DNA of 64,000 nt from Candidatus Adlerbacteria bacterium. Its GTDB lineage: Bacteria > Patescibacteriota > Minisyncoccia > Phycocordibacterales > SBAW01. Below, one piece after another: positions 32,112 to 60,942 of the stretch. Where the stretch lies: the NCBI GenBank assembly GCA_028286685.1, contig JAQBRA010000002.1, forward strand, positions 1,073-65,072, in the 5' to 3' direction. Made by a program: the position numbers and the translations under genes. Position 1 is the stretch's first letter, and each line of letters begins with the position of its first letter. A model generated the notes under the pieces. That model worked only from the letters and a program-made list of their open reading frames with translations. It did no database searches and was not told the DNA's origin.

Positions 32112-32522
32112 TTATCGTATGGTTTTGACGAGCGTAAAGTTGCCGCGGAAACCAGGGTTTCCCGAAGCGCCTTCGTCGACATCGCCGACGCGCACGACAA
32201 CCTGCCCGGGCTCCTCAAAGACGCCTATCTCGTGGCCGCCGCCAGCAAACCAGCAGATGACCTTGGATTTCTCATACTCCAAAAAGTCGGAGTCCATCTC
32301 GGCGCAGCTGCCCTCGTGCGTACCGATGTCGAAGCTCTCGCCGCCTGCCATGAGGGTTACTTGCGTCTGCGGTATGCCATCCTTTTCGCCCCGCTCGGAA
32401 AACTCCCACGAGTAGACAAGGGGCCCGGCCGGGGCTTTTGTGTCGTGCCTAAAGACCGTAAACGCCACGCCGCCCAAAATGATGATGATAAGGCCGAGAA
32501 TTCCCCATGATTTAGGTGTCAT
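32112..32522 (-). CDS. hypothetical membrane-anchored protein
   Basis: N-terminal TM (GILGLIIIILGGVAF). Confidence 0.3.
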   Translation of the reverse strand: MTPKSWGILGLIIIILGGVAFTVFRHDTKAPAGPLVYSWEFSERGEKDGIPQTQVTLMAGGESFDIGTHEGSCAEMDSDFLEYEKSKVICWFAGGGHEIGVFEEPGQVVVRVGDVDEGASGNPGFRGNFTLVKTIR

Positions 32523-32551
32523 GCGAATAAGTATAACGTCCTCGCCAGCTC

Positions 32552-33322
32552 TTACAAACGCTCTATAGTGGTCGCCCAGATAACGCCGTCTATGTCGTAG
32601 GGAGTGTTTGCCTCGGCCGGATGCAGCGGGCCCTCAACCTTGACCTTGGCGCCGGTTGGGAAATCGACCGGCGATGCGGACATAAGCGAGGTGTTTATGG
32701 CGTAGTGGCCGTCGCTCTGGTCTATTGCGATGCCGAAGGCGCATTCCATAGTATGTGGGCCGTCACCCTTGTGCGGCAGGCACTCCCAGACGCCCGTAAC
32801 GCTTACCCGCTCAGGCGGTGGCTCTGTGGCGCCCTTTTGCCAGCTGGAGATAAGCCATTGCTCCGCCCGTTTTTCGAGCGCAATAGTTACCGGATACGTG
32901 GCGGCATAGCCTTCTGGATCATCATTCGTTACCTCAACTACCGTGCCCTGCGCGGTCGCGGTCGCATCCTTGTAGCTAACCTCGGCAATCTCGACGCGGT
33001 CGGGCCACGGACTCGAGGTTTGGCGGCCAGGGGCGCTCTTAGGGTCAGCCTGCCATGCCGCAAAAAGTTCCGGGGTTATATAGAGGCCGTACTGCGCGCC
33101 CACTTGCGCCGCAGCATCCGGAGCCAGGAGCGAGACATTCTTCATGTTCGAGCCCAGGCCCTCGATAGCGGCCCGAATAGCTGAGTCCTCGGTATTGGAG
33201 ACCGAACCCTGATCCGGAGCCTTCTGCCCGCCGAACAGCACCAGCATCAGCGCGACCCCAAGTGCCACCGCCGCCCCTATCCCCATGATTGCCTCTTTTT
33301 TCATAAACACATTGTAACGCAT
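32552..33322 (-). CDS. hypothetical secreted/membrane-anchored protein
   Basis: N-terminal TM or signal sequence (IMGIGAAVALGVALMLVLFGG). Confidence 0.3.
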   Translation of the reverse strand: MRYNVFMKKEAIMGIGAAVALGVALMLVLFGGQKAPDQGSVSNTEDSAIRAAIEGLGSNMKNVSLLAPDAAAQVGAQYGLYITPELFAAWQADPKSAPGRQTSSPWPDRVEIAEVSYKDATATAQGTVVEVTNDDPEGYAATYPVTIALEKRAEQWLISSWQKGATEPPPERVSVTGVWECLPHKGDGPHTMECAFGIAIDQSDGHYAINTSLMSASPVDFPTGAKVKVEGPLHPAEANTPYDIDGVIWATTIERL

Positions 33323-33524
33323 TTGCGAGTGGCTACTTATTAAGCCGGGCCTAGCCAGAATTTTTCTTCTTGCTCATAATCGTGCCTACGATGCCGGCAA
33401 TGACCGCCAAGAGCCCGAGCAGCTGCGCTCCGCGGTTTAGGAGAAGCCTAGATAGTCTTATGTAGACTTTTTCTGCGTGTCATAGTGCCAGTATGCCAGC
33501 TCCCTACAAATAGGCGCGGAAAAA

Positions 33525-35423
33525 TTACGGCAACGACTGGCGGCCCTGTGTGGCCCCTACGACGGGTATCCCCTTCTGTTTTATATAATTGACTATGCTC
33601 TGGAACATGCTGGGCGTTACGGAGTAGAGACTGTTGTTAGTGTCAATATCGTGGAACGCGAGTATGAGCCACGTACGCGTCTGCGCCGCAGTATCGACCC
33701 ACTGCTTGACCTGGTCGAGCGTCACGGTATTACGCAGCTCCTGGTACTCGAGCTGGTACGGGTCGGAGTTGGTGGACACGTAGCCGCTTATGGTCGCGGC
33801 CGCACTGGTAAAGCCTGCGTCTCGCACGACCTGGAGCGTCGTCGCGTCGTACTCGCCGTACGGGTACGCGAACGAAAGCACCGACCCCACGCTCCACCCC
33901 AAAAGATCCTGCCGCGACCCGGCTATCTCGTCCTGCTCCTGCTGGGGTGTGAGCGCGGTCAAGTGCGCATGCGTGCGGGTGTGCGCGCCTATCTCGTGCC
34001 CGCGAGCCGCCAGGTCCTGCACTTGCGCCTTGGACACAAAGCCCGGAAAGCCATTGTCGGCCGTCTCGCGCGAGATAATATAGAACATCCCCTTGAATCC
34101 GGCCGTATCGAGCATGGGCGCGGCCGCGGAGTACTGGCTGCTTAAGCCGTCATCGAAGCGGAAGGTCACCGCCCCGGTCAAGAATATGCCGCTCGAGGCC
34201 GAAGAGGCGGTTATGGCTACGTTGTCGAGCGATAGCGTACCGTTGCCTTTGATAAGGTGGAAGACTCTCGTCTTGGCCGCAGCAGATGGCACCGAAAGAG
34301 CGGCCGTGGCAGTAGTCCACGACGAGGCGGCAGGCAAGGTCTTGAGGTCCGCGTAGAAAAAGCTGCCGTCGGCGCGCTGGAATTCTGCGGTCAAGATTGT
34401 CGGCACGTTCGCCATATAGCTGTCCGAGTAGGTATACGCGCCCGGTGAGAGCGCCACCTGCTCGTGCACCCACTTGGCGTCGCCGCTTGCGTAGCCCGAC
34501 ATAGCTATCTGCGCGCCATTGCCGCTCTGTCCCGAGACGGGATATGTAAACACGCGCGTATTGCTGCCATAGCCGCCGCGGGCCCAACGCGCTGGGAGCC
34601 CCCCGGAGCCCGCGGTCTCGAAGTCGCCGTTTAGCACCGAGTTCTGGGCGGACGGAGGCGGCGGGGACGGCGGCATGACCTCGCGCAGGACGTAGTCGTC
34701 GGTATCGAGCGTGCCGTTGCTTTTAATAAGATGGAAGATCGTCGCTGACACCGTGCCCGCGGGCGCCGCAAATTGCACCGTGATGTTCGTGTATGCGGCG
34801 CTCGCGGGCAAGGTGGCAACGTCCTTATAAACGAACGTGCCGCCCGAGAGCGCAAAGCGGATAGTGACTATGCTTGCGGCCGTGCTTTTGTAGGTGTCCG
34901 AAAATTCGTAGGTCTTGCCGCCTGTTACGGGCATGTCGTCCGGGTACCACTTGGCGTCGCCGCTTGCGTAATTGGATAGTGCGACCTCAACGCCACTGCC
35001 ACTTTTGCCCGGCACGGGGTACGTAAGCGCTCGCGTGCTGCTGCCGTAGCCGCCCTTGTGCCAGCTGGCTGGCAGGCCGGGCTGACCGGCAGTCTCAAGC
35101 CCGGGATTAGGCACCAGATTGGGGCCAAAGCTGGAAGCTGCCGGAGCGAGCGCGGCGGGAGCCGCCGCGGGCGCTGTCTTGTTGCCGCTCGGCAGCGTAG
35201 GACTCGGTATAGGCGCCTTTCTGTCTATGTTGGGCTCTTGCGCGGTTTCGCGGTGCGGTATGAGTATGGGCCCGGCGCGCTGCAGGTTAGGGTCCGCGGC
35301 GCTTTCTTGGTTTGGGACCGGAGCGCCGAAGGAGACCCCGAGCGGCGCCACCAGCGCCACCATGACAATAAGCGTCGCTATTTTCTTTCGCCCGCGCCAC
35401 CAATTGTTTACATTGTCTTTCAT
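33525..35423 (-). CDS. secreted polysaccharide deacetylase (NodB domain) with two tandem CBM4/9-like carbohydrate-binding modules
   Basis: NodB motifs FRFDDG...HTRTHAHL. Two about 130-aa repeats (NPGLETAG...SNYASGDAKW and NGDFETAG...SGYASGDAKW). Confidence 0.65.
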   Translation of the reverse strand: MKDNVNNWWRGRKKIATLIVMVALVAPLGVSFGAPVPNQESAADPNLQRAGPILIPHRETAQEPNIDRKAPIPSPTLPSGNKTAPAAAPAALAPAASSFGPNLVPNPGLETAGQPGLPASWHKGGYGSSTRALTYPVPGKSGSGVEVALSNYASGDAKWYPDDMPVTGGKTYEFSDTYKSTAASIVTIRFALSGGTFVYKDVATLPASAAYTNITVQFAAPAGTVSATIFHLIKSNGTLDTDDYVLREVMPPSPPPPSAQNSVLNGDFETAGSGGLPARWARGGYGSNTRVFTYPVSGQSGNGAQIAMSGYASGDAKWVHEQVALSPGAYTYSDSYMANVPTILTAEFQRADGSFFYADLKTLPAASSWTTATAALSVPSAAAKTRVFHLIKGNGTLSLDNVAITASSASSGIFLTGAVTFRFDDGLSSQYSAAAPMLDTAGFKGMFYIISRETADNGFPGFVSKAQVQDLAARGHEIGAHTRTHAHLTALTPQQEQDEIAGSRQDLLGWSVGSVLSFAYPYGEYDATTLQVVRDAGFTSAAATISGYVSTNSDPYQLEYQELRNTVTLDQVKQWVDTAAQTRTWLILAFHDIDTNNSLYSVTPSMFQSIVNYIKQKGIPVVGATQGRQSLP

Positions 35424-35677
35424 ACCTACATATCGTCTTTAACATACGGACGCGATTTCGCGTAAGTGTAGTGCGTATGCCGTGATAGGACTGTGAACAA
35501 AGGCTATGGACAAAGCACGCATGCCGTAGCACAGCGCAATAATCTGAAGATGAAATATGGCGCAACCGTGCGATATACGATTCTTCATTAAGTTTCATCG
35601 TCCTTTCACTATTGACCATATTCACCGAGTCTTAAAGAATATGCAGGTGCGAAGCTTACCCGTTATGAATTCCAAGA

Positions 35678-37438
35678 TTGCAACCCATGCGTATTACAAA
35701 AGCCGCGCTCGTCGCGACTCTATCCCTCAGTGTGCTACTGCCGACGTTCGCGTCGGCGCAGACAGCTTCGGTCTATTACCCGTTCAACAGTGCGGGCACG
35801 CTCTATCAAGCGAGCTCTGCCGAAAAAAGCCCCAGTTCCTACTTCTGGCTTAAAAGCGGCGCCAAACTCGTCATCAAAGATGGTGTGGGCAACACGATAC
35901 AAGGCGCCCTTCCCGCCGACGATCCGTGGAGAAAGACCTATGCATCGACCCTCGCCACGGCCTCCGACAATGGCGCGCACCCGCAGAACACCTTCCTCCT
36001 GCTAACCCGGGCCGCATACAAGAACACCTCCGCACAGATATATGTGCGCCGTACGGCCGACAACCTTACAAACCCGGCCAATCGACAGCCCTACAACGGC
36101 GAGTCGATCCTCGCGCGGTACCAGAGTGACGGAACCTTCTACTATGCCGGCATCCGAGCCGATGGCACGGTCGTCATCAAAAAGAAATTGAACGGCGCAT
36201 ACCAAACGCTCTCGCAGAAGAAGGTGCTCTCTGGCACGTATAACGCAAGTTCAAATCCTAACCTCATCCCTAAAAACACCTGGATAGGACTTAAGCTCAC
36301 GATTGAAGACACCAGCGCAGGCCCGCAACTTACCCTCTTTACCGATGTGAGTAAGACCGGCGCGTGGAGCAAGGCGCTCAGCGTTATCGACGACAAGGCG
36401 AAATTCGGCAGCCCTATCACGGGCGCGGGTGTCGTCGGCATCCAAACCGATTACGCGGACGCGCAGTTCGACGACTTCCTCTTCTCGGAGATAGCGGCAA
36501 CATCGACCCCAGCCCCGACGCCAGCACCCACACCTACCCCTACTCCCACCCCCACTCCGACCCCGACGCCAGCACCCACACCTACGCCGACGCCTACCCC
36601 CGCACAGGGATATGACGCTACCGTGCTCGGCGGCAAGCCAGTCATGTACCTTGCAATGAACTCGTTCAGCACGGGCAAAGAGTCGGACCTAAGCGGCCAT
36701 AACAACGCCGGCGCCTACAAAGGCGGCACGCCCACGACGGCCGCGCTCCCTAACGGGGAGACGGCAGCCAACTTCAACGGCTCGAGCCAGTACCTGACCG
36801 TGCCGTCGAACGCCTCGCTCTCGATCCCGACTACCGGCAAATTGACGTGGGAGGCGTGGATCCGGCCCGATACGTTCCAGTTTTCCAACGCCAGCAGCGA
36901 TGGCTATGTCGACTGGATGGGCAAATGCGCAAACTACTCGCCGACGTGCGAGTGGGAGGCGCGCATCTACGGCGCATCGACCGCACAAGGCCGCCCCAAC
37001 CGACTCTCAGCCTACGCGTTCAACCCATCGGCCGGTCTCGGGAGCGCGGCCGACTGGCAGCCGCAGGCGGGCCTCCTGCAGGCGGGCAAGTGGCTCCACG
37101 TGGTCGCAGAATACGACCTATCGACGACGCCATCTGGGTGCTCCTCCGCTTACCCCGGATCGATCAACATCTGGGTCAACGGCATCAAGCAGAACTTCGC
37201 CGCACATGCACCGACCGGATGCATGAGCCAGTACAAAATATCCCCCAAAGCCGGCAGTTCGCCGCTTACTATCGGGACGATGGCGCTCGACACCTGGTTT
37301 AAGGGTGCGGTCGGCAAGGTCGCCGTGTACAACCGACTGCTGACGCAGACTGAAATCAATGCGCACTTCACTGCAATGACAGGCGCCAATCCTTCCGGCT
37401 CGTGCGCATCCACCTGTACCGCCGCGCTCGTGCAGTAA
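35678..37438 (+). CDS. secreted protein with a novel N-terminal domain, (TP)n linker and C-terminal LamG/concanavalin-A-like lectin domain
   Basis: Signal peptide. An N-terminal domain of about 250 aa paralogous to 41769..42605, then TPAPTPAPTPTPTPTPTPTPTPAPTPTPTPTPA, then a LamG_3-like domain (WEAWIRPD...WLHVVAEYD...IWVNG). Confidence 0.5.
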   Translation: MQPMRITKAALVATLSLSVLLPTFASAQTASVYYPFNSAGTLYQASSAEKSPSSYFWLKSGAKLVIKDGVGNTIQGALPADDPWRKTYASTLATASDNGAHPQNTFLLLTRAAYKNTSAQIYVRRTADNLTNPANRQPYNGESILARYQSDGTFYYAGIRADGTVVIKKKLNGAYQTLSQKKVLSGTYNASSNPNLIPKNTWIGLKLTIEDTSAGPQLTLFTDVSKTGAWSKALSVIDDKAKFGSPITGAGVVGIQTDYADAQFDDFLFSEIAATSTPAPTPAPTPTPTPTPTPTPTPAPTPTPTPTPAQGYDATVLGGKPVMYLAMNSFSTGKESDLSGHNNAGAYKGGTPTTAALPNGETAANFNGSSQYLTVPSNASLSIPTTGKLTWEAWIRPDTFQFSNASSDGYVDWMGKCANYSPTCEWEARIYGASTAQGRPNRLSAYAFNPSAGLGSAADWQPQAGLLQAGKWLHVVAEYDLSTTPSGCSSAYPGSINIWVNGIKQNFAAHAPTGCMSQYKISPKAGSSPLTIGTMALDTWFKGAVGKVAVYNRLLTQTEINAHFTAMTGANPSGSCASTCTAALVQ

Positions 37439-37537
37439 GGTTACCGACCTAAAAATCGACTCATCCCCCGTTCAGCGCAGTGCAACAGGCCATGGTTCAC
37501 TATCAGTTCAGCGTACTACGGTACAGTACGCCGTGAT

Positions 37538-38923
37538 ATGGAAGCTCAATCTGCGACAGAGAGAATAGCGGGAAAGGACGACAAGAAAGGACCGAAATCC
37601 CGCATCGACAAGCCGCGGAACGGGCAGGAAGATGAGCACCCACCCCCTCGCCTACTGAACGTAGCAGTGGTCGGCGTCGGCTATGTCGGCCTACCGCTCG
37701 CGCTCCTGGCCCGCGCAAAGGGCTACCGGGTGCGGGGCATCGACATCGACGAGCGCAAGCGCGCAGCTGTGCGTGACGCAGCCGTGGCCGACCTGGACGC
37801 CTCCTTTACGGAGGCGTTGCGCGTGCAGCCCTTAGAGGTCTCAGGCCATTTCGGCCCGGTGCGCAGCGCGAACATTGTCATCGTATGCGTGCCGACCCCG
37901 GTCGACGACGAGCATAACCCGGACCTCTCCTTGATCGAGGGAGCTGCACGCCGCGTCGGGCGCAACCTGCACCAAGGCGCACTCGTCATACTGGAGTCGA
38001 CCGTGCATCCCGGCACCTGCGACGAGATCTTTATCCCCATTTTAGAGAAAGCGTCGGGCCTGCGCGCCGGAAAGGATTTCGGCGTAGCCCATTGCCCGGA
38101 ACGCATCAACCCGGGAGACAAGGTTTGGACGATAGAACGCATCCCCCGCGTCGTGGGCGCCACGACCGAAAAGGCGCTTAGCTTGGCGGCCAGCTTCTAC
38201 CGCTCGATACTCAGCGCGTCGGTCCATGAGATGGAGAGCATTAAAGAGGCCGAGGCGGTCAAGGTGGTTGAGAATTCCTTTAGGGACATTAACATTGCCT
38301 TCGTCAACGAGCTCGCGATGTCCTTCAGCAAGCTTGGCATCGACGTCAGCCACGTGCTGAGCGGCGCCGCGACGAAGCCTTTCGGCTTCCTGCTCCATCA
38401 GCCGGGGTGCGGTGTTGGAGGGCATTGCATACCGGTCGACCCGTACTACCTTATACGGTACGCCAAGCGCAACGGATTTTCGCACCGCTTCCTGTCGCTC
38501 GCACGCACGATAAACGAAGGCATGCCCGCATATACAGTCTCGCTCGTCGAGACAGGCCTGCACTCGCTCGGACGCACGTTGAGCAACTCGAGCGTGGCGC
38601 TCTTGGGCCTCTCTTATAAAGCCAACGTAAGCGACCTGCGCGAGAGCCCGTCGTTCGAGATTAAGGAACTGCTTGAGAGTAAGGGGGCACGGGTGCGCAC
38701 CTTCGACGAGCATGCGCCCGACCGATCGACGACGCACTCGCTCGCCGAGGCGCTCGACGGGGCCGATGCCGCAATAGTCGCGACCGCCCATGCGGAGTTC
38801 GCTGGACTGCCCCCCTCGGTGTTCGCCTCGCGCGGCGTGCGCGTGGTGGTCGACGGACGCAACTGCCTCCAAAAGGAGCAGTACCTGCGGGCGGGCATCC
38901 TTTACCGCGGCATAGGCCGCTAA
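37538..38923 (+). CDS. nucleotide-sugar (UDP-glucose/UDP-ManNAc-type) 6-dehydrogenase
   Basis: VAVVGVGYVGLPLA Rossmann, catalytic Cys in GFLLHQPGCGVGGHCIPVDP, and a C-terminal UDP-binding domain. Confidence 0.75.
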   Translation: MEAQSATERIAGKDDKKGPKSRIDKPRNGQEDEHPPPRLLNVAVVGVGYVGLPLALLARAKGYRVRGIDIDERKRAAVRDAAVADLDASFTEALRVQPLEVSGHFGPVRSANIVIVCVPTPVDDEHNPDLSLIEGAARRVGRNLHQGALVILESTVHPGTCDEIFIPILEKASGLRAGKDFGVAHCPERINPGDKVWTIERIPRVVGATTEKALSLAASFYRSILSASVHEMESIKEAEAVKVVENSFRDINIAFVNELAMSFSKLGIDVSHVLSGAATKPFGFLLHQPGCGVGGHCIPVDPYYLIRYAKRNGFSHRFLSLARTINEGMPAYTVSLVETGLHSLGRTLSNSSVALLGLSYKANVSDLRESPSFEIKELLESKGARVRTFDEHAPDRSTTHSLAEALDGADAAIVATAHAEFAGLPPSVFASRGVRVVVDGRNCLQKEQYLRAGILYRGIGR

Positions 38924-38927
38924 GGCA

Positions 38928-40211
38928 ATGGAACCACTACCCACGCAGCGACGGCTCGCATTCCTGCAGGACGCAGGGCCCCTGTTTATGTTCTTCCTCG
39001 TGGTTTACTTCATCATCATTCTGAAGACCGCGACTGTCTCCTCCATCGTCGACCACTGGTTCTTTGGCTTATACAGTCTGCTCATCACGACCTACATCCT
39101 CTCACGCTTCCTGCTGTCGCATTTCCATGTAGTGCCCCGCGCGGACCCCGCCTACCGCCCGACCGTCACTTTCGTGGTGCCGGCCAAGAACGAGGAGGAC
39201 AACATACGCGAGACTATGCGCAAGTTCAGCGAGGTCGACTACCCGCCCGAACTTATCGAGGTGATAGCTATCAACGACGGCTCCACCGACCGGACGCTTG
39301 AGGAGATGCGCGCAGCTGCGCTTGAGATACGTGCGCGCATCGCGCGCGTCGAGGTTATCCACTGGGGCCACAATCGCGGCAAGCGCCACGGCATGGCGGA
39401 AGGAGTACAGCGCGCGCGGCACGAAATCATCATCTTCATCGACTCCGACAGCTTCATCGAGCCCGACTGCGTCACCCACCTGGTAAAGTACTTCGCCGAC
39501 CCGGCAGTCGGCGCGGTCTCGGGGCATACCGACGTCCACAACGACCAGGCAAACTTCCTCACCCGCATGCAGGCCATACGCTACTACCTGGCGTTCCGAG
39601 TCTACAAGGCGGCGGAGTCGGTATTCGGCGCGGTAACCTGCTGCCCAGGCTGCTGCAGTGCATACAAGCGCGCCTACCTTATACCCATACTCGACGAGTG
39701 GCTTACCCAGCGCTTTTTGGGCGGCCAGTGCACCTTTGGCGACGACCGCTCGCTCACCAACTTTATCCTGCGGAAATTCGAGGCGGTCTATGCGCCCGAG
39801 GCGCGAGCGCGCACCGTCGTGCCCGAGAAGTTCGCCACGTACGTGCGCCAGCAACAGCGCTGGAAAAAGTCGTGGATACGCGAGACTTTTATCGCATGCG
39901 GATTTATGTGGCGCAAGCATCCGCTCGCGGCGATATCCTTCTATACGTACGTTTTTTTGGCGTTCGCCTCTCCTATCGTGTTTGCCCGCGCGATGATCTG
40001 GCATCCGCTTACGACCGCAAGCGTGCCGCTTGTGTACCTCGCGGGACTCTTCCTCATGCTCATGCTGCACGGGCTCTACTACCGCCTGTACATGGGCCCG
40101 CGAGCGTGGCTCACGGGGATAATGAGCTTTTGGTTTAATTCCGTGGTGCTTATGTGGCAGCTCCCTTGGGCACTCATCACGCTCAAGGACTCCCGCTGGG
40201 GCACCCGTTAA
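38928..40211 (+). CDS. processive family-2 glycosyltransferase (PgaC/HasA/NodC-like polysaccharide synthase)
   Basis: N- and C-terminal TM bundles, D-x-D and DGSTD motifs, and QQRW (Q-x-x-R-W) in VRQQQRWKKSW. Confidence 0.7.
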   Translation: MEPLPTQRRLAFLQDAGPLFMFFLVVYFIIILKTATVSSIVDHWFFGLYSLLITTYILSRFLLSHFHVVPRADPAYRPTVTFVVPAKNEEDNIRETMRKFSEVDYPPELIEVIAINDGSTDRTLEEMRAAALEIRARIARVEVIHWGHNRGKRHGMAEGVQRARHEIIIFIDSDSFIEPDCVTHLVKYFADPAVGAVSGHTDVHNDQANFLTRMQAIRYYLAFRVYKAAESVFGAVTCCPGCCSAYKRAYLIPILDEWLTQRFLGGQCTFGDDRSLTNFILRKFEAVYAPEARARTVVPEKFATYVRQQQRWKKSWIRETFIACGFMWRKHPLAAISFYTYVFLAFASPIVFARAMIWHPLTTASVPLVYLAGLFLMLMLHGLYYRLYMGPRAWLTGIMSFWFNSVVLMWQLPWALITLKDSRWGTR

Positions 40212-40216
40212 CTCCC

Positions 40217-41767
40217 ATGAGATTCGCACGATTTTCACTGCAAAGGCTCGGCCCGATAGTTTTTGCGGGAGTACTGCTCATGGTCGCGACTGTCTCGACG
40301 TTCACCTGGAAGAGCGCCCACTACGGGCAGACGCCGTTCTTCAACTGGCTGGTCCTCATGGTCGAAGAACGCACGGTAGCGGCGGCGTTCAATGGGTGGC
40401 ACTCCCTCGGCGATCTGTCAGCGCTCCTGGCGCCAAAAAAGACACAGGCGCAGCTCGCGAGAGCTGTCCCCGTGCTGGCCTATCACCGCCTGACGCTCAC
40501 CGAGGAGGCCGGCCAGCTTCCGGTGGCGCGCTTCATGGACCAGATGGAGACGCTGCACCGCGCCGGCTGGCACACCGCCACACTCGAGGAGTACCGGCAG
40601 TTCGTGCAGGGCACGCGCACGCTCCCCGAGCGCACCTTTCTCCTGACGTTCGACGACGGGGCGCAGCAGAGCTACTACCCCGTCGACCCCATACTCAAGA
40701 CGCTCGGTTACAGCGCGGTACAGTACGTCATCGTATCCGCCAGCGAAACGCCCAAAAGCATCTACTACCTATCGCCCGAGCAGATAAGCGCCATGCTCTC
40801 AACCGGGCGCTGGGAGATAGGCTCGCACTCCTTTGACGCACACCACACCTACCCCACCGACCCCGCAGGCGGGACCGGCATCTTTTATACCGACAAACTC
40901 TGGATGCCCACGCAAGGGCGCCTGGAGACCGACGCGGAGTTCCTCGCGCGCGTGCACGACGATCTCTTGCGCGCGCGCCAGGCGCTCGAAGCGCGCTACG
41001 GCGTAACAGTCGACACGTTTGCCGTCCCCTTTGGCGGAGAGACCGGACACCGCGCGGCGGACAACTACGCCGGTGGCAGCGATATAACGCTCGCGGAAGC
41101 GCGCAGGCTCTACGACTTCGTGTGGCTGCAGACCGACCGGCGCGACTTTACCTTCAATTACCCCAGCTACCCCTCTATACTCGGCAGGCGCATACACGTC
41201 GACTACGACTGGGAAGGCGAGACGCTCAAGACATTTATGGAGGGTGGAGTCCCCAAGGCGCTGCCATATAGGGATAACTTTGCCGTCGACAGCGGCTGGC
41301 GGCACTCCTGGGGCAGCGTCCAGCCCATCGGGTCGCTCGAGCTCGGTGCGGGCCCGCAGGATACCAGCGCGGGGAGCGTGCTGGACGGGAGTCTCTTGTG
41401 GAGCGCGTACCAAGCGGAGGCGACGGTCAATTGGGAACACGGGTACGCGGTGATCATGGGCGCGGTGCGCGACGCCCACACATACCGGTCGTGCTCGTTC
41501 TCTCCCGGCGAGGTCGAAATACACGACACCAGCGGCACCAGCATCATCCCGCTTGCCAAGCGCGCGGAGTCTGAGATCCAATACGGACAGGGGGTCAAGC
41601 TGGGTATCCGCGTGGAAGATGCCGCTATCTCCTGCTTGTACAACGGCCATGTCCTGCTCTCCGCGCCGACTGGCCGCAACGAGGGCGGCGTCGGCATACA
41701 GACTTGGGCGCCTGAACCAGGCACGGCGAGCCTCCTGGTGACCAATTTTCTCGCAGACCCGCTGTAA
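40217..41767 (+). CDS. two-domain polysaccharide deacetylase (PgaB-like: NodB domain plus C-terminal domain)
   Basis: N-terminal TM, then the NodB motif FLLTFDDGAQQSY...GSHSFDAHH, then a C-terminal domain of about 250 aa. Confidence 0.6.
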   Translation: MRFARFSLQRLGPIVFAGVLLMVATVSTFTWKSAHYGQTPFFNWLVLMVEERTVAAAFNGWHSLGDLSALLAPKKTQAQLARAVPVLAYHRLTLTEEAGQLPVARFMDQMETLHRAGWHTATLEEYRQFVQGTRTLPERTFLLTFDDGAQQSYYPVDPILKTLGYSAVQYVIVSASETPKSIYYLSPEQISAMLSTGRWEIGSHSFDAHHTYPTDPAGGTGIFYTDKLWMPTQGRLETDAEFLARVHDDLLRARQALEARYGVTVDTFAVPFGGETGHRAADNYAGGSDITLAEARRLYDFVWLQTDRRDFTFNYPSYPSILGRRIHVDYDWEGETLKTFMEGGVPKALPYRDNFAVDSGWRHSWGSVQPIGSLELGAGPQDTSAGSVLDGSLLWSAYQAEATVNWEHGYAVIMGAVRDAHTYRSCSFSPGEVEIHDTSGTSIIPLAKRAESEIQYGQGVKLGIRVEDAAISCLYNGHVLLSAPTGRNEGGVGIQTWAPEPGTASLLVTNFLADPL

Positions 41768-41768
41768 C

Positions 41769-42605
41769 ATGCTTATGCAGTTCTATGGCGTACTATCGGC
41801 GATGATCCTTTTAGCCGCAGTGGCGCTCCTTTTTGGCGCGGATCGAGTCGGCACGCCCGTGGCTACGGTCGCCTCGCCGTATGTCTACTTGTTCGGAGGG
41901 AACGGCGCACTGGAAGAGGCCAGGAATACGTCCAGGACCGCGAGCCCCTACTGGTGGCTAAACTCCGGCGGCAGAATCGAGATTGCCGGCTCCCTGGGCA
42001 GCACGATGCAGGGCGACGCGCCGCAAGGTGACCGATGGCGCACGGCCTACGCCGCCTCCAACCCGACCGATACCGACCAGGGTCTCCATCCGCAGAACAT
42101 CTTCCGTCTCGTGACGCGCAGCCTGTGGGGAGACGCGAGCCAGGAGGTCGAGCTGCGCCTGGTTGCCGACCAGAAGAGCCAAAGCCCTAATCGCAACGCG
42201 TCGAACGGGCTCTTTCTTATGAGCCGGTACGTGGACGGCGATACGCTTTACTACGCGGGCCTGCGCGTCGACGGCATGGCCGTGATAAAGAAAAAATACA
42301 ACGGCGCGTATTATACGCTTGCCGAGGCGCCGGCCTTCCCCGGCGCCTACGACCGCGACAAAAACCCCAATCTCCTGCCGCACGGGGAATGGCTCTCGAT
42401 ACGGTCCGAGACCGCGCATACTGACGGCGGCATCGCCATACGCCTATACCTGAAGCGGGAGTCGGACACCAATTGGCTGAAGCTCCTCGAGGCGATTGAC
42501 CGCGGCCAGAGCGGGACGCCCGCCATCAGGGGCCGCGGGCGCGGCGGCATCCGCACCGACTTTATGGACGTGCAGTTCCGCTCGTACCGGATGGAAAATT
42601 TGTGA
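41769..42605 (+). CDS. secreted protein, paralog of the novel N-terminal domain of 35678..37438
   Basis: Signal sequence. HPQNIFRLVTRS...YYAGLRVDGMAVIKKKYNGAYYTL...PNLLPHGEWLSIR...DFMDVQF aligns to the N-terminal domain of the LamG protein. Confidence 0.5.
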   Translation: MLMQFYGVLSAMILLAAVALLFGADRVGTPVATVASPYVYLFGGNGALEEARNTSRTASPYWWLNSGGRIEIAGSLGSTMQGDAPQGDRWRTAYAASNPTDTDQGLHPQNIFRLVTRSLWGDASQEVELRLVADQKSQSPNRNASNGLFLMSRYVDGDTLYYAGLRVDGMAVIKKKYNGAYYTLAEAPAFPGAYDRDKNPNLLPHGEWLSIRSETAHTDGGIAIRLYLKRESDTNWLKLLEAIDRGQSGTPAIRGRGRGGIRTDFMDVQFRSYRMENL

Positions 42606-42718
42606 CCCAAGTGGGAGAAAACTGGAACAACTTCTTTTAGAGCTAGGGGCTTGGTATGCCTTTGGGCGGGCTCTAGAGGCCGAGCGGGTCTAGTACTGAT
42701 ATTGGGGATTAGAAATGA

Positions 42719-42760
42719 AGAAGTCCCGTGAGAAGTGCGTGACTTCTCCGGGACTTTATC
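42719..42760 (-). terminator. hairpin terminator
   Basis: Nested inverted repeat gtcccg...gagaagt-gcgtg-acttctc...cgggac, downstream of the minus-strand gene. Confidence 0.45.
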
Positions 42761-42762
42761 TC

Positions 42763-43200
42763 TTACTCCTTCTTCGGGTATGTTTTGTGTATTTCAAGAT
42801 ACTTCTCTTCCGTTGACGGCAAACCAGCGCAAGTAAAAGCATCTGTGATACTTATCCGGCTCTCAAACAGAAAGCCGAGTTCTGCCATTTCAAACAAGGT
42901 TTGTAGGTCGATGCCCTTGCCGCTCCATTCCTCCGTCTTAATGTAGACAGTCACGTCTTCCTTGTGATAGTAATACTCGATTTCAGTGACTTTCGCCTCT
43001 GAGAAACGAGCAATTGAGTTGAAGGCAATTTCCTTCCCTTCAGCAGGAATAGCATTCACTGGCCAAGGAAGATAGAAAAGCGATGGGTGCGACGGGGAGT
43101 GCAGCCGCACTGCAGTCGCATACTCTTCAGGTAGATCCCAGTCATCCGCAGCAGTAGGAATTTCTACTAAGGCGACGGCTGGCGGTGCCAAGTAGTTCAT
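42763..43200 (-). CDS. hypothetical protein (low-GC islet next to a tRNA cluster)
   Basis: 145-aa ORF with no motif. GC is clearly lower than the genome backbone. Confidence 0.35.
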   Translation of the reverse strand: MNYLAPPAVALVEIPTAADDWDLPEEYATAVRLHSPSHPSLFYLPWPVNAIPAEGKEIAFNSIARFSEAKVTEIEYYYHKEDVTVYIKTEEWSGKGIDLQTLFEMAELGFLFESRISITDAFTCAGLPSTEEKYLEIHKTYPKKE

Positions 43201-43291
43201 ACGACCCTCCTCTTAGATGTTTTTCATCGACGAAAAACTATCGATGTATCCGCAGGCAAAATAACACACTATTTTATTTAAATCAACTCTG

Positions 43292-43363
43292 TGACCCCAC
43301 CGGGAATCGAACCCGGATTAACGGCTTGAAAAGCCGGCGTCCTAACCGTTAGACGATGGGGCC
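43292..43363 (-). tRNA. tRNA-Glu(TTC)
   Basis: The reverse complement reads GGCCCCATCGTCTAACGGTTAGGACGCCGGCTTTTCAAGCCG...GGTTCGATTCCCGGTGGGGTCA. Confidence 0.75.
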
Positions 43364-43393
43364 GCATGCCCGGGGCTTTAACCCTGGGCTTGG

Positions 43394-43480
43394 CGGAGGA
43401 GGTGAGATTCGAACTCACGGTGGAGTTTCCCCCACGCCACATTTCGAGTGTGGTGCCTTCGACCACTCAGCCACTCCTCC
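43394..43480 (-). tRNA. tRNA-Ser(CGA)
   Basis: The reverse complement reads GGAGGAGTGGCTGAGTGGTCGAAGGC...anticodon loop CTCGAAA...long variable arm...GTTCGAATCTCACCTCCTCCG, then CCA. Confidence 0.8.
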
Positions 43481-43551
43481 GTACCACGCAAAATAACACT
43501 TTTTTAACCTCTTTGCTATACTGGCTGCATTAGCCGCTTACCTGCATATAT

Positions 43552-43974
43552 ATGAACCGAGTAGTACATTTTGAGATACAGGCAGACGATCTGGACCGTG
43601 CGCAGAAGTTTTATGAGACAGCATTCGGCTGGACCTTCCAGCAGATGGGTCCCGAATACGGCAATTACCGAGTTATTACGACCGGCCCTGGCCCGGACGA
43701 AATGGCCGAAGGGGTCAAGATGGAAGACCTGGGCATTAACGGCGGAATGATGAAGCGCAACGCTCCGCTGCCCGCGGACGGCATGTCTCCCAACGCATTT
43801 ACCAGTGTTATGGGCGTGGGCGATATTGAGTCGATAATGCCTAAGATAGAGGCGGCAGGAGGCAAACCCCAGACCGACCTTATGGATGTGCCGAATGTCG
43901 GAAAGATCCGCTACTACAAGGATACCGAGGGCAATCTTTTTGGGATCATACAGCCGACAATGCGGGCGGCATAA
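43552..43974 (+). CDS. VOC-family (glyoxalase/bleomycin-resistance fold) protein
   Basis: VVHFEIQADDLDRAQKFYETAFGW, 140 aa. Confidence 0.6.
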   Translation: MNRVVHFEIQADDLDRAQKFYETAFGWTFQQMGPEYGNYRVITTGPGPDEMAEGVKMEDLGINGGMMKRNAPLPADGMSPNAFTSVMGVGDIESIMPKIEAAGGKPQTDLMDVPNVGKIRYYKDTEGNLFGIIQPTMRAA

Positions 43975-44015
43975 TAATTGAAAAAAGCTCCAAAATGCGC
44001 TAAGGTTTTGGAGAT

Positions 44016-44088
44016 GCGCGGTTAGCTCAGTTGGTAGAGCATCCCCTTGACGTGGGGAGGGTCGCAGGTTCAAGTCCTGCACCGCGCA
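44016..44088 (+). tRNA. tRNA-Val(GAC)
   Basis: GCGCGGTTAGCTCAGTTGGTAGAGC...anticodon loop CTTGACG...GGTTCAAGTCCTGCACCGCGCA. Confidence 0.8.
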
Positions 44089-44091
44089 CAA

Positions 44092-60649: not shown

Positions 60650-60942
60650 ATTTAGCGCGCGCGTCTGTAAGCCGAGTTCTGTCGTGGGCTGCAATTTATC
60701 TGGGCCCAGAGTCGCCCCTGGGCTCGAGCGGCACTCCGCAGTTGCCTGCGGCACGGCCTTGCACCCGGGTAGGGATTTTGCCGTTTCACCCGAACTAAAT
60801 CGGTTCGTCACTGTTCGCACCCCTTACGACCGCTAATATCGTACGGCAGGCGTTACCTGCTACCTTGCTACTGCAGTTGCCCGCAGTGGGAGCTCGGACT
60901 TTCCTCTCCGTCTTGCGACAGAGCTGCAACCAAACGCGCTTT
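60650..60942 (-). ncRNA. rnpB: RNase P RNA (bacterial type A, compact)
   Basis: The minus-strand transcript contains AGGAAAGUCCGAGCUCC (P4 5' strand), GGUAACGCCUGCC, GGGUGAAACGGC and ACAGAACUCGGCUUA (P4 3' strand). P1 pairs GCGCGUUUG with CAGACGCGC, and a hairpin follows. Confidence 0.75.

Follow-up and report, generated by a model that had tools for sequence, protein, structure and literature searches.

A conserved gene cluster for a putative chitin- or hyaluronan-like surface polysaccharide in Candidatus Adlerbacteria, with an unannotated protein family of predicted CBM66-like fold

The gene cluster at positions 33525–42605 of the analysed Adlerbacteria DNA (a stretch of 64,000 nucleotides, hereafter the window) is real and is conserved in ultra-small symbiotic bacteria as well as in some archaea. 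Its most likely role is to make a chitin- or hyaluronan-like surface polymer and to remove part of the acetyl groups from it. The reading favoured here, with reasonable though not high confidence, is that of a synthase-dependent surface-polysaccharide operon typical of CPR (Patescibacteria) and found also in DPANN archaea, in which a domain shared by two of the proteins acts as a non-catalytic binding module for the polymer. The glycosyltransferase, the dehydrogenase and the CE4 deacetylases are themselves ordinary members of known families, and the product of gene F, as judged by its structural model, represents the first member of a ConA-like/CBM66-like family that is so far unannotated.

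All six predicted open reading frames were recovered at their predicted coordinates, with gene A on the minus strand (33525–35423) and genes B (35678–37438), C (37538–38923), D (38928–40211), E (40217–41767) and F (41769–42605) on the plus strand, and the predicted divergent transcription is thus confirmed. Genes C, D, E and F are tightly packed with gaps of 1–6 bp. The most likely start of E is ATG 40217, located 6 bp past the D stop, and not GTG 40154, from which the mechanical ORF runs, while for D an alternative start at 38988 was chosen by a gene caller. The 254 bp between A and B (35424–35677) are presumed to be the divergent promoter region of both genes; a single sigma-70-like match lies there (35612–35640, plus strand), and since the promoter and terminator scan of 33200–43300 gave match counts not above those of shuffled sequence, it carries no evidential weight. 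Small secreted ORFs flank the cluster (32112–32522, 32552–33322, and 42763–43200); as they do not accompany the cassette elsewhere in a conserved way, they are not counted as part of the system. A genomic-island origin, considered because of tRNAs just downstream and a drop in GC, was set aside, as GC ranges between 0.53 and 0.63 throughout the window anyway. In the literature on CPR, Patescibacteria, and Parcubacteria nothing relevant to the operon was found.

The central enzyme is the product of gene D, which matches Glycos_transf_2 and Chitin_synth_2 in Pfam and contains the motif QQQRW. Its best PDB matches are the Chlorella-virus hyaluronan synthase 7sp7 (E 5e-31) and Xenopus HAS1 (2e-29). 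For pairwise comparison the HasA and NodC reference sequences were entered by hand; against this hand-entered HasA of S. pyogenes, which is of about the same length, D aligns throughout (30% identity over 384 aa, E 2e-59), and its W424GTR427 falls on the WGTR of that sequence. Among 31 homologues of D, archaeal ones included, D117, K152, D172xD174 (D172-S-D174 in D), G271DDR274, Q308QxRW312, and W424GTR427 are invariant. The catalytic motifs align with the residues of the Chlorella-virus enzyme, in which GDDR, QxxRW, and the WGTRG gating loop are functional (PMC11750622). The DxD, GDDR, QxxRW, and C-terminal WGTR motifs are thus common to D and class I hyaluronan synthases, while K227 is a Lys at the position where these synthases and NodC have a conserved Arg. 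Hydrophobic segments are found at both ends of the protein (residues 19–37, 333–351, and 361–379), and its homologues are named “hyaluronan synthase” in JGI and “chitin synthase” in NCBI. With the GT-A catalytic motifs, the WGTR motif, and the terminal membrane segments all present, D is classified by its sequence as a membrane-integrated processive GT2 of the class I hyaluronan-synthase/NodC/chitin-synthase clade. The processive character claimed by the original prediction is therefore supported, since proper alignment shows every processive-synthase motif. Its label “PgaC/HasA-like” survives on the HasA side and fails on the PgaC side, as D scores 196.8 bits against the NodC model (TIGR04242; curated cut-off 550) and 127.2 bits against the PgaC/IcaA model (TIGR03937; E 8e-37, curated cut-off 422), below the cut-off in both cases.

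Gene C possesses all three UDPG_MGDP_dh Pfam domains and belongs to TIGR03026 (389 bits, cut-off 190), so that the predicted nucleotide-sugar 6-dehydrogenase is confirmed at the level of the enzyme family. Its relatives are of the UDP-ManNAc/UDP-GlcNAc type and not UDP-glucose dehydrogenases: the best PDB matches are UDP-ManNAcA dehydrogenase 4r16 (E 2e-83) and Cap5O (5e-64), while UDP-glucose dehydrogenases in PDB reach about 1e-41 or weaker. UDP-ManNAc and UDP-GlcNAc 6-dehydrogenases are the nearest families despite scores below the equivalog cut-offs of NF040825 (295 versus 750 bits), NF011729 TviB (230 versus 592), and NF008286 WecC (219 versus 459). We infer that C would make UDP-GlcNAcA or UDP-ManNAcA. 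A nucleotide-sugar dehydrogenase gene likewise lies beside the synthase gene in hasA-hasB, but there it is of the UDP-glucose type, and has operons contain no counterpart of the two CE4 deacetylases and lectin-like proteins found here. Since C looks like a UDP-HexNAc dehydrogenase and deacetylases are encoded beside it, classical hyaluronan (GlcA-GlcNAc) is not indicated as the product.

Both predicted CE4 deacetylases are present and, on sequence, look active: the gathering score of PF01522 is reached, and the catalytic Asp-Asp (TFDDG) and the His...His metal ligands are in place. In A the Polysacc_deac_1 domain (PF01522, E 2e-24) is C-terminal (residues ~418–629), and a hydrophobic segment is N-terminal (residues 15–33), the protein being secreted or anchored; among NCBIfam models that of the holdfast deacetylase HfsH scores highest (103 bits, under the cut-off). 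The two additional modules predicted for A do exist as a true N-terminal tandem repeat of ~145 aa (46% identity over 145 aa, E 1e-46), but their CBM4/9 label is not supported, as neither repeat matched any Pfam family at E<=10, PF02018 included. In E a transmembrane helix and stalk helix (residues 8–69) are followed by the CE4 barrel (residues ~86–345, nt 40472–41251; Polysacc_deac_1, E 4e-14) and a C-terminal domain (residues ~350–515, nt 41264–41761). The latter is all-beta in the AF2 model, with structural matches to CBM66 and lectins. The description of E as a PgaB-like two-domain enzyme is therefore correct for its N-terminal domain only, to which the match with PgaB (TIGR03938; 98.6 bits, under the cut-off of 322) is confined, whereas the second domain of PgaB is a GH153 barrel and that of E is a CBM66-like beta-sandwich.

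These results bear on PNAG as a possible product. PgaABCD/IcaADBC follow the same predicted scheme, in which a processive GT2 works with an extracytoplasmic CE4 enzyme and the GlcNAc polymer loses some of its N-acetyl groups to the latter while still being made; the CE4 domain of E is structurally nearest to the PNAG deacetylases PgaB (N-terminal domain), IcaB, and BpsB, and the PgaC/IcaA model does still match D. However, the higher NodC score together with the C-terminal WGTR, a gating motif of hyaluronan and chitin synthases, makes PNAG less likely, and the closeness of D to hyaluronan synthases in PDB and its end-to-end alignment with the hand-entered HasA point in the same direction. Moreover, E is devoid of the PgaB C-terminal glycosidase domain, neither PgaA nor a small PgaD/IcaD-like partner is found among the called genes, and a dehydrogenase is present, for which we know of no role in PNAG synthesis. 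A beta-1,6-GlcNAc product made by a Pga/Ica analogue is thus considered very improbable. The original reading of a PNAG- or hyaluronan-like polymer of GlcNAc and uronic acid is partly supported, in that a synthase with processive motifs, a uronic-acid-forming dehydrogenase, and two active-looking deacetylases are present.

B and F are true paralogs over the ~250 aa of the shared domain, as was predicted: residues 27–272 of B align with residues 32–278 of F (38% identity over 248 aa, E 3e-51, BLASTP). In B the signal peptide (residues 1–27, ...FASA/Q) is followed by a divergent copy of the domain (residues 27–272, nt 35756–36493), a Pro/Thr linker (residues ~273–312), and the predicted LamG lectin domain, which was identified as Laminin_G_3 (PF13385; residues 367–561, nt 36776–37360, E 2.5e-12, 47.6 bits versus a cut-off of 27.6, full model 1–151). 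A B-like architecture occurs elsewhere, with the shared domain joined to fn3 and LamG (P0379). F consists of a hydrophobic anchor or signal (residues 2–22) and the shared domain alone (residues ~30–278, nt 41856–42602). A hydrophobic segment precedes the domain at the N-terminus in all 43 aligned members of the family, which places the domain outside the cytoplasm.

The predicted uncharacterised nature of this domain was borne out. No match was found in Pfam, in NCBIfam, or in PDB, the latter searched with a single sequence and with a 43-sequence profile. In sequence it shows no significant similarity to CBM66/DUF1080 (PF06439, “3-keto-disaccharide hydrolase”)/YesU, the best value for PF06439 being E 0.061 in one of the 43 members, with no match for F itself. 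The model of F (pLDDT 95.6) is a confident ConA-like jelly roll, a beta-sandwich superimposable on CBM66 as the nearest structure, with the GALC lectin domain, YesU, and phage receptor-binding domains as further neighbours; such a predicted fold would suit a carbohydrate-binding module or a glycanase. As compared with the CBM66/DUF1080/YesU modules, of which CBM66 binds fructans, the domain is about 85 residues larger and has family-specific conserved loops. Because phage receptor-binding proteins were among the structural matches, IMG/VR viral contigs were searched as well, and no relatives of the domain were found in them. The C-terminal domain of E has the same fold and the same structural neighbours, but homology is not demonstrable: BLASTP gave no match to the shared domain, and a cryptic third copy was rejected, as hhalign returned 6% probability for a 40-column match over core strands.

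The family is large, with at least 765 clusters at 50% identity and 1418 at 90%, and well conserved, with ~50% identity across distant lineages and 81 positions conserved at >=90%. Neighbourhoods were counted in 78 loci, each with an F homologue, and the order [C]-D-E-F is repeated in most of these genomes. A GT2 is found in 60 loci, an E-type deacetylase in 61, and both in 54; E lies directly upstream of F on the same strand in 53, and natural E-F fusions exist (P0360 and P0367). The supposed association of the shared domain with synthase and deacetylase is therefore upheld by genomic linkage. In DPANN archaeal loci a DUF2334/CE4-type deacetylase replaces E beside the same GT2, dehydrogenase, and F, which means that the functional trio persists even where the deacetylase is a non-orthologous one. 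In 33 of the 78 loci a dehydrogenase is present, immediately upstream of the GT2, and as it is missing from about 40–55% of related loci, the polymer may not depend on uronic acid as a constituent. The related GT2 proteins form subtypes of about 65% and about 40% identity to D; no rule connects them to the dehydrogenase, since both occur with and without it. Gene A is accessory (11/78 loci).

Whether the shared domain binds or processes glycans, which had been left open at first, can be approached through its fusion partners. It is joined to catalytic domains (GH5, GH6, heparinase-II/III-like lyase with CE4, CE4 with PKD) and to display or binding modules (PG_binding_1, fn3, PKD, BACON, FG-GAP, LamG), and it is also found in tandem copies. 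Such promiscuity is CBM-like behaviour and favours binding over processing; the domain is thus probably lectin-like and binds the polymer of the operon. At the same time its high conservation is unusual for a CBM, and the conserved polar loop residues (DTDxGxHPQN, SPNRNASNG, SPYWWLNSGG, and GIRTDFMD) would suit an active site too. The domain might accordingly be a jelly-roll lyase or hydrolase with the task of trimming or releasing the polymer, the role played in their systems by AlgL, BcsZ, PelA, and the PgaB C-terminal domain, or a Crh/GH16-like transglycosylase that grafts the chain to the wall. A glycanase or lyase is, as far as is known, part of almost every synthase-dependent EPS operon, and none is otherwise visible in this cluster; invariant His, Gln, Asn, Arg, Tyr, Lys, and Asp occur in loops and strands, and in most genomes the domain stands alone as a protein. 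Nevertheless, the top structural neighbours are non-catalytic, the sequence has no GH16 ExDxxE-type motif on one strand, and some fusion partners already contain a lyase or glycosidase (heparinase II/III, GH5, GH6), while pure display-repeat fusions and tandem copies are typical of CBMs. Besides, the copy in B is retained though it departs from the family consensus at 20 of the 81 highly conserved positions, D101, R113, and R262 included. An enzymatic function is for these reasons judged rather unlikely.

Another possibility is that the domain recognises a foreign glycan of the host cell wall or capsule as the head of an episymbiont adhesin, linkage to the operon reflecting co-regulation of attachment. 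The surface arrays with PG_binding_1, GH5/GH6, CAP, FG-GAP, PKD, and fn3, the likeness to phage receptor-binding domains, and the extra paralogues located away from the synthase in some loci agree with this. They have to be weighed against the near-invariant tight adjacency to deacetylase and synthase, the E-F fusions, and the very high conservation across lineages that necessarily differ in hosts, since host-recognition modules usually diversify, and a foreign ligand is therefore regarded as quite improbable.

With binding of the cluster's own polymer as the preferred function, the following mechanism may be proposed. C would oxidise a UDP-N-acetylhexosamine to the uronic acid, the substrate being suggested by its nearest relatives, and D, as its motifs and architecture imply, would polymerise UDP-GlcNAc, possibly in alternation or interspersed with this uronic acid, and thread the chain through its own membrane channel. 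Outside the cell E, anchored by one helix, would partially de-N-acetylate the emerging chain, as its fold and catalytic residues suggest, while its CBM66-like domain may hold the chain. F, anchored beside E, and B, secreted, are both expected to bind the polymer through the shared domain, for which the fold, the operon linkage, the E-F fusions, and the promiscuity of the module speak; they may retain or organise it at the cell surface or pass it to E, and B could cross-link it via its second lectin domain. A would be an optional additional deacetylase whose two repeats are of the binding type. The GlcNAc polymer made in this way, partly deacetylated and possibly acidic, might then form a capsule or adhesive matrix of the episymbiont. 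A functional analogy for E and F is BcsB, which is anchored by a single helix, accompanies a processive GT2 on the extracytoplasmic side, and guides nascent cellulose with its jelly-roll carbohydrate-binding domains; BcsB has no sequence or demonstrated structural relationship to them and differs by its C-terminal anchor and flavodoxin-like domains.

The fungal and chloroviral CHS8-CDA1-UNGD cluster combines the same three enzyme types, namely, a HAS-like chitin synthase (CV class), a polysaccharide deacetylase, and a UDP-GlcNAc 6-dehydrogenase, and its product is likewise uncharacterised (PMC5122149, PMC7053769). The likeness noted here is one of enzyme type: that cluster belongs to eukaryotes or viruses, nothing equivalent to the shared domain has been reported from it, and the deacetylase described here has a CBM66-like domain and a membrane anchor. 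Because of this resemblance, to solve the product of either system would probably be to understand both.

A more far-reaching interpretation, which is considered unlikely, is that CPR and DPANN, the two radiations formed by ultra-small episymbionts, share a horizontally exchanged cassette for an undescribed, zwitterionic, partly de-N-acetylated GlcNAc/HexNAc-uronic-acid polymer that is neither chitin, hyaluronan, nor PNAG, with the shared domain as a dedicated, possibly Ca2+-dependent receptor or anchor, or a new jelly-roll class of grafting or cleaving enzymes, and that together they build a host-attachment adhesive matrix. Organisms of both groups combine very small genomes with a dependence on host-cell contact, and to our knowledge little is known of the surface chemistry that mediates it. 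The retention of the cassette by many of them, together with its expected use of UDP-GlcNAc for an exported polymer, makes it a strong candidate for a capsule or attachment matrix. The shared domain, being a sizeable family, could join the CBM classification and, if catalytic, would represent a new glycan-processing enzyme family.

The cluster at 33525–42605 comprises six long open reading frames (A to F) exactly where the original prediction had placed them, so that its observation of a gene cluster is confirmed. Gene A (33525–35423), which codes for a CE4 deacetylase, is located on the minus strand, while B (35678–37438; a domain of about 250 aa shared with F, followed by LamG), C (37538–38923; nucleotide-sugar 6-dehydrogenase), D (38928–40211; GT2 synthase), E (40217–41767; membrane-anchored CE4 deacetylase), and F (41769–42605; the shared domain alone) are on the plus strand. 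The divergent genes A and B are separated by 254 bp, and the C-D, D-E, and E-F gaps are only 1–6 bp, provided that the ATG at 40217 is the start codon of E; C to F are therefore almost certainly one transcript. The source, Candidatus Adlerbacteria, is a member of the Patescibacteria (CPR), and F and E match the NCBI proteins JWL87_57 and JWL87_56, respectively, at 100% identity. By hydropathy A, B, E, and F each possess a single N-terminal hydrophobic segment, which in B is a canonical signal peptide (…FASA/Q), and D possesses several; that A, B, E, and F are located outside the cytoplasm is taken as established.

Downstream of A on the same (minus) strand, at 32112–33322, two small membrane-anchored or secreted proteins (256 and 136 aa) are encoded, which had no Pfam match, showed only patchy similarity in two other loci, and probably lie outside the conserved cassette. 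Directly 3′ of the cluster the tRNA genes Glu-TTC, Ser-CGA, and Val-GAC are located (43291–44089), and on this side the GC content drops from about 0.63 within the operon to a value of about 0.545; the tRNA genes and the GC drop could mark an insertion boundary, but wide GC variation is seen over the whole window. Elsewhere in the window a bacterial class A RNase P RNA was found on the minus strand (60652–60942; score 104.8, just above the gathering threshold of 100), and its short length of 291 nt versus a 367-position model fits the reduced form of this RNA in CPR bacteria.

The synthase D matches Glycos_transf_2 and Chitin_synth_2 in Pfam, and its closest PDB relatives are the hyaluronan synthases of Chlorella virus (E 5e-31) and Xenopus (E 2e-29), with cellulose synthase and fungal chitin synthase far behind. 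The NodC and PgaC/IcaA models gave 197 and 127 bits, both under cut-off, and the alignment with NodC covers 302 residues at 35% identity. A match to S. pyogenes HasA (384 residues, 30% identity, E 2e-59), extending from the first transmembrane pair to the last residue, serves as a lead only. In an alignment of 31 family members, archaeal ones included, D117, K152, D172xD174, C238/C239, G271DDR274, Q308QxRW312, and the terminal W424GTR427 are invariant. According to structural work on the Chlorella-virus enzyme CvHAS, GDDR belongs to the catalytic base helix, QxxRW forms the acceptor and donor platform, and WGTRG is the gating loop (PMC11750622). The invariant motifs of D correspond to these residues, and the proposed identity of D as a processive GT2 is thus not refuted. 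Relatives of D are automatically annotated as either "hyaluronan synthase" (JGI) or "chitin synthase" (NCBI). K227 of D is a lysine throughout the whole GT2 family and an arginine in CvHAS (R256, near the acceptor C1 hydroxyl), HasA, and NodC, which may be a specificity-related substitution.

The dehydrogenase C contains all three UDPG_MGDP_dh domains (Pfam) and passes the nucleotide-sugar dehydrogenase model TIGR03026 with 389 bits (cut-off 190). Among families and solved structures, the UDP-ManNAc and UDP-GlcNAc-type dehydrogenases come closest to C (P. horikoshii 4r16, E 2e-83; Cap5O, E 5e-64), followed by the TviB and WecC models of NCBIfam, and UDP-glucose dehydrogenases matched about 40 orders of magnitude more weakly, which speaks against a UDP-glucose-type precursor. 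Since C falls below every equivalog cut-off, its family is firm and its substrate only presumed.

The structural model of deacetylase E, built with 44 homologues (pLDDT 93.7), starts with a transmembrane helix and a stalk helix, continues with a CE4 barrel, and closes with a C-terminal domain that is all-beta; the Asp-Asp and His…His residues typical of CE4 show no variation. Of the PgaB-like two-domain architecture suggested for E, the first domain holds and the second does not, being all-beta in the model. Protein A is a second CE4 deacetylase (Pfam E 2e-24), whose nearest NCBIfam family, under cut-off, is the holdfast deacetylase HfsH. Its deacetylase domain is preceded by two tandem modules of about 145 aa (residues ~100–410; 46% mutual identity), each opening with an N-x-x-F/L-E-T-A-G…LPA-W motif. 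These modules matched no Pfam family, which leaves their CBM4/9 label unsupported; the pair may represent a further binding module that databases do not annotate. In three other loci (L039, L053, and L057) modules of this kind also stand in front of CE4 domains.

The domain shared by B (residues 27–272) and F (residues 32–278) is 38% identical between them (E 3e-51) and belongs to a family of at least 1418 clusters at 90% identity, or at least 765 at 50% identity, 361 of the latter with E≤1e-30. No relative was found by sequence in Pfam, NCBIfam, or PDB, profile search included. The AF2 model of F (pLDDT 95.6, pTM 0.88) shows an N-terminal helix and then a beta-sandwich, for which Foldseek placed CBM66 at the top (E 2e-8) and after it legume lectins, GH43 C-terminal domains, lichenase, and an ulvan lyase, with TM scores of only about 0.45. 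On this ranking the predicted fold is a ConA-like jelly roll; the CBM66/DUF1080 group comes closest, and the shared domain is larger by about 85 residues. An N-terminal hydrophobic segment is present in all 43 aligned members, and conservation reaches ≥90% at 81 positions, which gather in the loops SPYWWLNSGG, DTDxGxHPQN, and SPNRNASNG and also in the strands LYYAGxRVDG, VIKKK, and GIRTDFMD; the copy in B is altered at 20 of the 81. This extreme conservation, the polar loop residues, and an operon devoid of any other glycanase speak for the shared domain being itself a lyase, hydrolase, or transglycosylase, a reading which we consider unlikely.

The domain also occurs in numerous fusions: with GH5 (P0242), with GH6 and PG_binding_1 (P0263, P0299), with CAP and GH6 (P0292), with CE4 and PKD (P0258), with arrays of PKD, fn3, BACON, and FG-GAP, and with fn3 and LamG in P0379, which resembles gene B. 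Two proteins, P0360 and P0367, combine it with a full E-type deacetylase; in P0360 residues 62–520 match E over its full length (32% identity, E 5e-68) and residues 520–771 are the shared domain. In many members the domain stands two or three times in tandem. Such promiscuous, appended, and repeated usage is, on domain architecture, the behaviour of a carbohydrate-binding module. As the bound ligand a host glycan is quite improbable. In P0298 and P0301 (~1200–1400 aa) the shared domain is C-terminal to a heparinase-II/III-like lyase and CE4, and these fusions point to a putative ligand with both uronic acid and N-acetyl groups; the two proteins may be the counterpart that degrades this uronic-acid/HexNAc polymer.

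Taking as established the families of C, D, E, and A, the catalytic motifs, the folds of F and of the E C-terminal domain, the operon conservation, and the fusions, we regard the following picture as fairly probable. C would make a UDP-HexNAc uronic acid, and D would polymerise and export a GlcNAc-based chain, perhaps including this uronic acid. The membrane-held E would partly de-N-acetylate the chain, gripped by its CBM66-like domain, with A as an optional extra deacetylase. The anchored F and the secreted B, bivalent via LamG, would bind the polymer and either retain or arrange it on the cell surface or pass it on to E, a role that would be comparable to that of the BcsB jelly-roll domains beside cellulose synthase. 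The original prediction was right in outline, its errors being the PgaB-type architecture, the CBM4/9 modules, the UDP-glucose-type precursor, and PNAG, which as the product is very improbable.

By gene content the closest described system comes from fungi and chloroviruses, where the genes for a HAS-like chitin synthase (CHS8, CV class), a chitin deacetylase (CDA1), and a UDP-GlcNAc 6-dehydrogenase (UNGD) are clustered (PMC5122149, PMC7053769). The has operon has the synthase-dehydrogenase pair in common with the window cluster, and the pga and ica operons its synthase-CE4 logic, but all four systems lack the shared domain. A literature search over part of the journals turned up no description of the operon from either CPR or DPANN organisms.

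When one genome per species was scanned, a homologue of F was found in 78 loci, which were searched by tblastn with the six window proteins. The D-type GT2 was present in 60 loci (in 45 of the 52 whose upstream sequence extends to 5.5 kb or more), the E-type deacetylase in 61, and both together in 54, with E directly upstream of F on the same strand in 53. The dehydrogenase, always just upstream of the GT2, was found in 33 loci, a second F paralogue in 16, and an A-like protein in 11. A complete Kaiserbacteria chromosome carries the same four genes with their order unchanged; about 3 kb upstream of the cassette (L001:1–2580) it encodes a 2540-aa SpvB/RHS-repeat/FG-GAP protein with an Ntox44 domain, a putative contact-dependent toxin near surface-polymer genes.

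Several loci are labelled as DPANN archaea (L031, L022, L047, and L013, from MAGs), and for L031 the label is credible owing to its neighbours, an archaeal-type ribosomal protein L10/P0 and a Hef-associated nuclease. In this locus (L031:5192–13184) another kind of deacetylase, of about 300 aa (DUF2334/Polysacc_deac_1 type), comes after the dehydrogenase and GT2, and F is divergently placed, with a LamG_3 protein and GlmS beside it; synthase, deacetylase, and F thus stay together even where a non-orthologous deacetylase has taken over. The enzymes of the cluster are ordinary; what is new is the ConA-like family, which no database annotates, and the cassette conserved across domains, whose distribution suggests movement between domains, linking both episymbiont radiations.
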